Positions 1-896 of a stretch of 896 nt of DNA are shown here, in pieces. The position numbers and the translations under genes were made by a program. Source of the stretch: Escherichia coli (GTDB lineage: Bacteria; Pseudomonadota; Gammaproteobacteria; Enterobacterales; Enterobacteriaceae); NCBI RefSeq assembly GCF_003334305.1, contig NZ_QOWS01000065.1; one strand, written 5' to 3'. The notes below the pieces were generated by a model. That model was not told the origin of the DNA and ran no database searches. It saw only the letters and a list, made by a program, of their open reading frames with translations. The first letter of the stretch is position 1; each line of letters begins with the position of its first letter.

Positions 1-896
1 TTCGGGCGGACGCTGACTTTCCACCGGGCAGCTAAGGGTGACGTGGCGGGCGCGGTGACGGGGGTGACGGACGGCGCGGGCCGCCGTTTTCACCTGGCGC
101 TGACCACGCAGGCGCAGCGGGCGGAAGCCTTCCGTAAACAGCGCGCCACGTCTTTATCTTCCCCTGCCGGTCCCCGTTCTGCTTCCTCTTCTTCTGCTTT
201 CCCCGACACGCTGCCCGCCGGTACAGAATACGGTGCCGATAACGGTATCCGGCTGGAGGCGGTGTGGCTGACACACGACCCGGCATACCCGGATGAACAG
301 CCGACTGCGCCGCTGGCGCGCTACACGTACACGGCCAGCGGAGAACTGCGGGCGGTGTATGACCGCAGCGGAACGCAGGTGCGCGGGTTTACTTATGATG
401 CGGAGCACGCCGGGCGGATGGTGGCGCACCATTATGCGGGGAGGCCGGAGAGCTGCTACCGGTATGATGATACCGGTCGGGTGACGGAGCAGGTCAACCC
501 GGAGGGGCTGGACTACCGCTTTGAGTACGGAGAGAGCCGGGTAATCATCACGGACAGCCTGAACCGGCGGGAGGTGCTGTACACGGAAGGCGAGGGTGGC
601 CTGAAGCGGGTGGTGAAGAAGGAACATGCGGACGGGAGCATTACCCGCAGCGAGTATGATGAGGCGGGGAGGCTGAAGGCACAGACGGATGCGGCGGGGC
701 GGCGGACGGAGTACAGCCTGCATATGGCGTCGGGTGCGGTGACGGCGGTGACGGGGCCGGACGGCAGGACGGTGCGGTATGGCTATAACAGCCAGCGGCA
801 GGTGACGTCAGTGACGTACCCGGACGGGCTTCGCAGCAGCCGGGAGTATGATGAGAAGGGAAGGCTGACGGCGGAGACCTCGCGCAGCGGTGAGAC
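1..896 (+). CDS. Rhs-family YD-repeat protein, internal fragment of the conserved core (5' and 3' ends both outside the window)
   Basis: Seen in sequence: frame 1 is open across all 298 complete codons (1-894) with no stop. Translation begins FGRTLTFHRAAKGDVAGAVTGVTDGAGRRFHLALTTQAQRAEAF and ends YPDGLRSSREYDEKGRLTAETSRSGE. It contains repeated YD-repeat units (RYTYTASGELRAVYD, GFTYDAEHAGRMVAH, YRYDDTGRVTEQ, SEYDEAGRLKAQTD, VRYGYNSQRQVTSVT, REYDEKGRLTAET). Codons strongly favour G/C, especially G, at the third position (acg, gcg, cgg, ctg, gtg, gag). Established knowledge: these motifs and the conserved blocks DSLNRREVL, GLKRVVKKE and AQTDAAGRRTEY are characteristic of enterobacterial Rhs core proteins. 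No database search was run; the paralog or subfamily cannot be assigned from memory, so no gene symbol is given. Confidence 0.93.
148..207 (+). repeat. Low-complexity Ser/Pro-rich segment (TSLSSPAGPRSASSSSAFPD) encoded by a pyrimidine-rich tract, including an in-frame (tct)3 run at 187-195
   Basis: Seen in sequence: nt 151-205 are almost entirely C/T on the + strand (tctttatcttcccctgccggtccccgttctgcttcctcttcttctgctttcccc), in sharp contrast to the G-rich codons on either side. In frame 1 this gives a serine/proline-rich stretch with four consecutive Ser codons (tcc tct tct tct). Confidence 0.6.
454..495 (+). repeat. Canonical YD-repeat unit (CYRYDDTGRVTEQV)
   Basis: Frame 1 codons 152-165 match the Y-R-Y-D-x-x-G-R-(V/L) core of the YD-repeat consensus almost perfectly. 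Confidence 0.8.
646..687 (+). repeat. Canonical YD-repeat unit (RSEYDEAGRLKAQT)
   Basis: Frame 1 codons 216-229, E-Y-D-x-x-G-R-L-x-x-x-T-D motif. Its nucleotide sequence is an imperfect direct repeat of 838-879. Confidence 0.8.
838..879 (+). repeat. Canonical YD-repeat unit (SREYDEKGRLTAET)
   Basis: Frame 1 codons 280-293, E-Y-D-x-x-G-R-L motif. Shares gagtatgatgag...aggctga with 652-676. Confidence 0.8.

Follow-up and report, generated by a model that had tools for sequence, protein, structure and literature searches.

The 896-nt window of Escherichia coli DNA analyzed here is almost certainly an internal 298-codon piece of an rhs gene of E. coli (or Shigella), belonging to the enterobacterial family annotated as 'RHS element core protein'. 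We established the reading frame of the window, its family, its fold, its position in the protein, and the genomic context of near-identical copies. When the window was translated, frame 1 of the + strand was free of stop codons across all 298 codons, as claimed in the first-pass annotation, with 16, 16, 7, 6, and 2 stops in the remaining five frames. Given the base composition of the window itself, the probability of 298 stop-free codons was ~2.5e-4. The window as a whole had a GC content of 66.1%; across the first, second, and third codon positions of frame +1 it was 66/55/77%, which is a coding-like pattern. An ORF listing of the window held five ORFs, every one of them out-of-frame or antisense. 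The real frame was absent from this track because the lister omits ORFs that run past either window end; its own description confirmed that end-truncated ORFs go unlisted, and the earlier view that the track had missed a window-spanning gene was therefore correct. In E. coli strain 1943, the annotated CDS start lies 654 nt upstream of the match to window base 1. This distance is a multiple of 3, and window frame 1 is therefore the frame of the strain 1943 gene. The internal rhs core gene fragment thus occupies positions 1-896 of the + strand in frame 1 and corresponds to codons 219-516 of the 1420-aa protein WP_047675370.1, without start, stop, or toxin tip. The window gave no Rfam match for RNA families, and the one tandem DNA repeat in it, at nt 736-754, was negligible (9-nt x 2). 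The repeats of the protein have diverged so far that the DNA no longer shows them.

The frame +1 translation was assigned to a family by profile search. The NCBIfam model NF041261 (RHS_core, 'RHS element core protein') matched with E=4.8e-167 and 558 bits at profile positions 216-512 of 1261. NF041261 is an equivalog-level model with a curated cut-off of 2000 bits for the whole protein, against which the 558 bits come from the window alone, covering 297 of the 1261 profile positions. The YD-repeat model TIGR01643 scored 77.2 bits against a cut-off of 15.8. Pfam RHS_repeat (PF05593) matched five times, at residues 110-147, 155-185, 203-234, 243-276, and 267-297, with E-values of at most 0.001 for four matches and 0.0013 for one. 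This profile search, which had been suggested together with the original claim, returned significant Rhs/YD-repeat family matches, and the reading of frame 1 as an Rhs/YD-repeat protein was borne out by NF041261, TIGR01643, and the five Pfam matches alike. We found no evidence contradicting the family assignment.

Since long spurious ORFs arise readily in high-GC DNA, we considered whether a listed out-of-frame or antisense ORF was the real gene and open frame +1 a side effect of base composition. One such candidate was the 189-aa antisense ORF (positions 154-723, - strand), which is long and has no interruption in five of the six closest relatives in the comparison. The alignment used comprised the window, six members of its own subfamily (88-100% aa identity), and two copies of other subfamilies. 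Relative to the window, substitutions at frame +1 codon positions 1/2/3 numbered 3/2/12 in STEC711, 9/8/26 in O157, and 9/6/30 in ETEC4073. Such a concentration at third positions argues that frame +1 is the selected frame. Changed codons of the antisense ORF were almost all non-synonymous (synonymous/non-synonymous 0/7 in STEC711 and 3/20 in O157), whereas the same bases read in the sense frame gave 6/1 and 13/10, respectively. Moreover, neither ETEC4073 nor Rhs copy 1 of strain 1943 has the antisense ORF uninterrupted, and no gene was annotated at the position of this ORF in any fetched genome. Frame +1, in contrast, had strong family, PDB, and fold matches. The antisense ORF was therefore rejected as a gene on its non-synonymous substitution pattern and its interruption in relatives, and the chance that it or another listed ORF is the real gene is negligible. 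It is instead a by-product (shadow ORF) of the GC-rich sense frame.

With frame +1 as the coding frame, we looked at how widely the gene is distributed. Megablast matches were found in 2623 of 5426 complete E. coli genomes, the best at 99.8% over all 896 bases, and the best matches were all annotated 'RHS element core protein'. The window differed from the top matches at two bases, nt 774 and 810, both synonymous; the states in the window (G at nt 774 and A at nt 810) are present in the O157 and STEC711 copies. The exact window allele (100%) was absent from the 5426 complete E. coli genomes, and an exact-match scan with an 88-nt allele-specific stretch (nt 730-817) gave no match in GTDB species representatives or JGI metagenome contigs. 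Likewise, no gene product identical to the 298-aa fragment itself was on record in public assemblies. The window is thus a new allele at most, two synonymous bases apart from known genes, and the gene is already known and annotated.

The match in E. coli strain 1943 was an intact CDS of 4263 nt encoding WP_047675370.1 (1420 aa). The window corresponds to residues 219-516 of this protein, in frame, with all 298 amino acids identical, the DNA being 99.8% identical and differing by two synonymous bases within the same GC-rich core. The complete WP_047675370.1 scored 2648.5 bits against NF041261 (curated cut-off 2000). From the N-terminus, it carries the letters PAAR at residues 5-8, a DUF6531 domain at residues 49-126 (E=1e-18), RHS repeats from residue 328 to 910, PF03527 at 1157-1192, and the Rhs-associated core TIGR03696 at 1183-1260 (82.7 bits); the Pfam search of the protein reported no PAAR domain. 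The region of the DPxG...DPxG aspartyl autoprotease motif at the C-terminal Rhs-associated core reads ...YYDPLQGRYITQDPIGL, where cleavage is predicted. The remaining 160 residues (1261-1420), after the end of the Rhs-associated core at 1260, make up the tip. The GC content of the strain 1943 locus was 61-66% in the core, 36.5% in the tip, and 33.5% in the downstream ORF. This is the classic Rhs composition of a GC-rich core followed by an AT-rich tip, a pattern described in PMC2935791, with the tip part seen in the counterpart only. The window had been described as encoding only the conserved repeat shell and not the toxic tip, and its placement at residues 219-516 of 1420, with the tip at 1261-1420, agreed with the absence of the tip. 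The landmarks of the family, namely the PAAR region and plug, the DPxG autoprotease, the toxin tip, and the predicted immunity gene, all lie outside the window and were seen in near-identical full-length copies only. The tip of WP_047675370.1 (L002:12127-12609, L002 being the strain 1943 locus) contains GHEFAH, an HExxH motif, and gave a weak Pfam Peptidase_M91 match (E=0.0066), which suggests a metallopeptidase-type toxin. The 149-aa ORF downstream of it, named dsORF-h1 (L002:12621-13070), had no family match and is the likely immunity gene.

An intact protein with the amino acid stretch of the window is common: WP_047675370.1 is recorded in exactly this form in 199 blocks of public assemblies. 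This bears on the question of whether the source of the window is a dead rhs copy, that is, a pseudogene or remnant that is open locally and from which no full Rhs protein is made. The best-matching gene was annotated 'frameshifted' in 13KWH46, GPEC60-12-649, and STEC711, which make up three of the four near-identical loci retrieved irrespective of intactness. In 13KWH46 (L001:11348-15609), an A-run in the CPKKKD region has lost one nucleotide at gene nt 121, which falls in codon 41 and precedes the window. The loss may be genuine, as an inactivating or slippage-prone mutation, or it may be a homopolymer sequencing error. The K-12 gene rhsE is itself a pseudogene. Furthermore, truncated remnants of the window's core are fused to tssM in other genomes. 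Five matches (H60-H64, covering window positions 238-896, 457-896, or 579-896) were such truncated copies annotated with tssM, and they fit the rhsG-tssM deletion junction of PMC10711316, according to which E. coli ST410 clade B/H24 lost its T6SS through this deletion. Against a dead copy, the window itself contains no stop or frameshift, both of its differences from the nearest genes are synonymous, and the identical amino acid stretch occurs within the intact 1420-aa protein in those 199 blocks. We consider a dead copy possible but the less probable case. If true, it would alter the expression of the gene and not the identity of the sequence.

Because the exact allele matched nothing at 100%, we also considered a recombinant rhs copy, in which the core would be a mosaic produced by gene conversion between rhsE-locus and T6SS-cluster copies and would be joined to a toxin tip or locus uncatalogued in E. 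coli. We regard such a copy as improbable. Block-wise divergence was observed among the relatives: ETEC4073 (L009) carried a patch of rhsA/copy-1-type bases at columns 25-62 of alignment A1, and AR216.2b and FDAARGOS_1276 (L008/L007) changed to another sequence type at columns 735-760 and 797-896 of the same alignment. In these three genomes the pattern looks like gene conversion between Rhs paralogues. Separately, the idea that the 896-nt window was a short-read contig bounded by paralogue-shared repeats was not supported, as exact matches of at least 25 nt between the two strain 1943 Rhs copies were absent near the window edges.

The genomic neighborhood of the near-identical copies was then compared. 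In all near-identical loci examined, the gene was located between yncH and pptA/nhoA, where K-12 carries its rhsE pseudogene. The locus runs in the order vgrG, a first rhs core gene, small ORFs and IS remnants, a DUF3969 gene, the rhs gene matching the window, and dsORF-h1 (149 aa). In relatives, vgrG was ~5.4 kb (end to start) upstream of the window-matching rhs, with another rhs gene between them; the nearest copies are thus not directly after vgrG, as the first rhs gene, IS remnants, and two small ORFs intervene. The first rhs gene of the locus was 68% identical to the window at the amino acid level. Copies 92-95% identical in DNA directly follow tssBC, hcp, and vgrG in a T6SS cluster beside yafV/fadE (O157:H7, AR216.2b). 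The T6SS association proposed at the outset was accordingly substantiated, with vgrG in the same locus of relatives and hcp-vgrG directly preceding the 92-95% identical copies. Upstream of the strain 1943 rhs are genes for a 150-aa hypothetical protein (L002:7354-7806) and a 64-aa DUF3969 protein (L002:8072-8266), which occupy the place typical of T6SS adaptor or chaperone genes. Neither protein had an NCBIfam match, and no DUF1795/Eag gene was annotated in the loci examined.

Regarding classification, the family of the window is clade I of Jackson et al. 2009 (Hill's Rhs elements). As summarized in that paper (PMC2935791), Hill's three E. coli subfamilies are rhsABCF, rhsDE, and rhsGH, and in PMC10711316 the vgrG-linked copy is named rhsG. 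The NCBI name 'dsORF-h1' and this use of 'rhsG' suggest that the window may belong to the rhsGH subfamily. The core was then compared with that of its paralogues. K-12 RhsA (b3593) and the first Rhs copy, WP_000014852.1, were collinear with the whole window in the same repeat register, and the motifs GVTDGA, FPDTLP, GIRL, GRMVAH, GLKRVVKKE, and AQTDAAGR were among those invariant. However, the two proteins were 62% and 68% identical to the window, respectively, and their Ser-rich stretches were shorter by 9 residues in K-12 RhsA and by 5 in WP_000014852.1. The window thus belongs to a core subfamily distinct from that of rhsA and of the first Rhs copy. The word 'conserved' in the first-pass annotation therefore held within the subfamily but not beyond it, given the 62% identity to K-12 RhsA and 68% to the neighboring Rhs copy.

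An AlphaFold model of the window protein was built on an alignment of eight paralogue sequences and had a mean pLDDT of 73. Residues 1-82 were poorly modelled. Within them, a pre-repeat segment at residues 17-50 (positions 49-150, + strand) was predicted to form strands at 17-23 and 29-35 and a helix at 37-50 (TQAQRAEAFRKQRA), with block-mean pLDDT of ~44-62; it had no Pfam repeat match, as the Pfam matches begin at residue 110. It was followed by a Ser/Pro-rich low-complexity stretch at residues 51-82 (positions 151-246, + strand), SLSSPAGPRSASSSSAFPDTLPAGTEYGADNG, predicted to be disordered with pLDDT <50. The poorly modelled stretch begins with a Ser/Pro-rich segment, SLSSPAGPRSASSSS. GC content dipped to 52.8% at nt 148-200 versus 72% and 66% on either side. 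All indels among the Rhs paralogues fell within or just around the Ser/Pro-rich stretch (columns 135-222 of alignment A1 and 43-74 of alignment A2), in a region that starts just upstream of the stretch and extends into it. The stretch, taken as window positions 145-246 (residues 49-82), probably forms a variable loop at the surface of the shell. The YD-repeat region at residues 84-298 (positions 250-896, + strand) was modelled entirely as strands, ~19 antiparallel beta-strands in all, and was also identified by Pfam RHS_repeat and Foldseek; its block-mean pLDDT was 51-60 at residues 81-100 and 71-97 from 101 onward. In the model, these strands would pair into roughly nine YD-repeat hairpins, whose turns include DDTGR, DEAGR, DAAGR, and DEKGR, and they are predicted to be Rhs cocoon wall near the N-terminal opening, a fragment that by itself cannot show closure of the cocoon. 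The description of the window as 'repeat shell' was accurate for the YD repeats at residues 110-297, but the first ~100 residues (block-mean pLDDT 29-62) are not canonical YD repeats.

A Foldseek search of the PDB with the window model returned T6SS Rhs shells as the top 14 matches (E 2e-16 to 5e-9), with 8cp6 (Tse5, E=2e-16), 7q97, 8qjb, and 8qjd the best, and Tc toxin BC components and teneurins ranked after them. A PDB sequence search with the window protein gave Tse5 (8CP6) at E=7.7e-30, and also RhsA (7Q97) and Salmonella bongori Rhs (8QJB/8QJD). Pseudomonas aeruginosa Tse5, the best match in both searches, is thus the closest solved structure, although only ~26% identical to the window. 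Its layout parallels that of the full-length counterpart: a short N-terminal fragment, a DUF6531 plug (residues 48-124 in Tse5 versus 49-126 in WP_047675370.1), a barrel, a C-terminal autoprotease plug, and a toxin. The two differ in that Tse5 has no counterpart of the Ser-rich loop, the alignment beginning at window residue 79, and in that the Tse5 toxin is pore-forming, whereas the WP_047675370.1 tip has an HExxH motif. In the PDB sequence alignment, window residues G199-G200 in 'EGEGGLKR' aligned with G361-G362 of Tse5, two residues reported to help keep the N-terminal fragment, once cleaved, in place within the shell close to its N-terminal opening (PMC10684867). By homology to Tse5, the window would encode the early barrel, next to the plug.

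Other solved shells were more distant in sequence. Pseudomonas protegens RhsA (7Q97), Photorhabdus Rhs1/Tre23 (7PQ5), and the S. bongori Rhs core (8QJB/8QJD) form the same anticlockwise beta-sheet cocoon at 17-25% identity and share the same logic of T6SS delivery (PMC8765631). S. bongori Rhs superposed on the window model with TM 0.60 and an rmsd of 3.1 A over 217 columns. P. protegens RhsA has a prePAAR, transmembrane helices, and a requirement for an Eag chaperone (PMC8765631), whereas the loci here have no annotated DUF1795/Eag gene. Tc toxin TcB/TcC and teneurin shells have the same repeat and shell architecture as the window, but their matches were weaker (E about 1e-8 and below), their plugs and delivery differ, and they come without T6SS context. 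A YD-repeat cocoon is indeed common to insecticidal Tc toxin BC components, WapA-like wall proteins, and teneurin-like proteins, and the window could in principle encode one of these instead of a T6SS Rhs effector. These families were lower in both the structural and the sequence match lists, with Tc and teneurin entries coming later and with weaker E-values than the 14 T6SS Rhs shells. The window DNA, in contrast, was 99.8% identical to E. coli RHS element core genes, the full-length WP_047675370.1 passed the equivalog model NF041261, and vgrG/hcp adjoin rhs in relatives. We therefore give an origin from another YD-repeat family practically no credence.

As part of an Rhs core gene, the window can be placed in a mechanism drawn from published work. 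The Rhs repeats of solved systems form a closed cocoon, an aspartyl protease cuts after PxxxxDPxGL, and the toxin remains encapsulated; an N-terminal DUF6531 plug seals the other end and joins the PAAR region on VgrG, and the T6SS fires the complex (PMC8765631, PMC10684867). By analogy, the full protein would be a PAAR-Rhs polymorphic toxin. Its short N-terminal region and DUF6531 plug would attach it to the VgrG spike of the T6SS, and ~1000 residues of YD repeats would wind into a closed beta-sheet cocoon. The C-terminal aspartyl autoprotease would cut off the variable toxin, which would remain enclosed in the cocoon up to the firing of the complex into a neighboring cell, and the small downstream gene would confer immunity. 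Secretion, autoproteolysis, killing, and immunity are thus attributed to this protein on the literature. The contribution of the window would be the early cocoon wall (residues 219-516), including the disordered Ser-rich loop, and the stretch itself has no catalytic or toxic function. According to a review citing Ma et al. 2017 (PMC6730261), E. coli PAAR-Rhs-CT proteins were shown to kill competitors in a T6SS2-dependent manner, and 'neighbourless' Rhs copies related to the Rhs of the T6SS2 cluster are described. The arrangement of the loci compared here fits this picture.

Short windows of this kind are prone to a particular error of annotation, in that ORF tracks omitting end-truncated ORFs miss the sole real gene and show only spurious ones. 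E. coli has been known to carry Rhs core genes since the 1980s, and these genes have an NCBI annotation model of their own. Since the structure of Rhs proteins and their T6SS-dependent delivery have already been solved in relatives, the scientific weight of the window is small.
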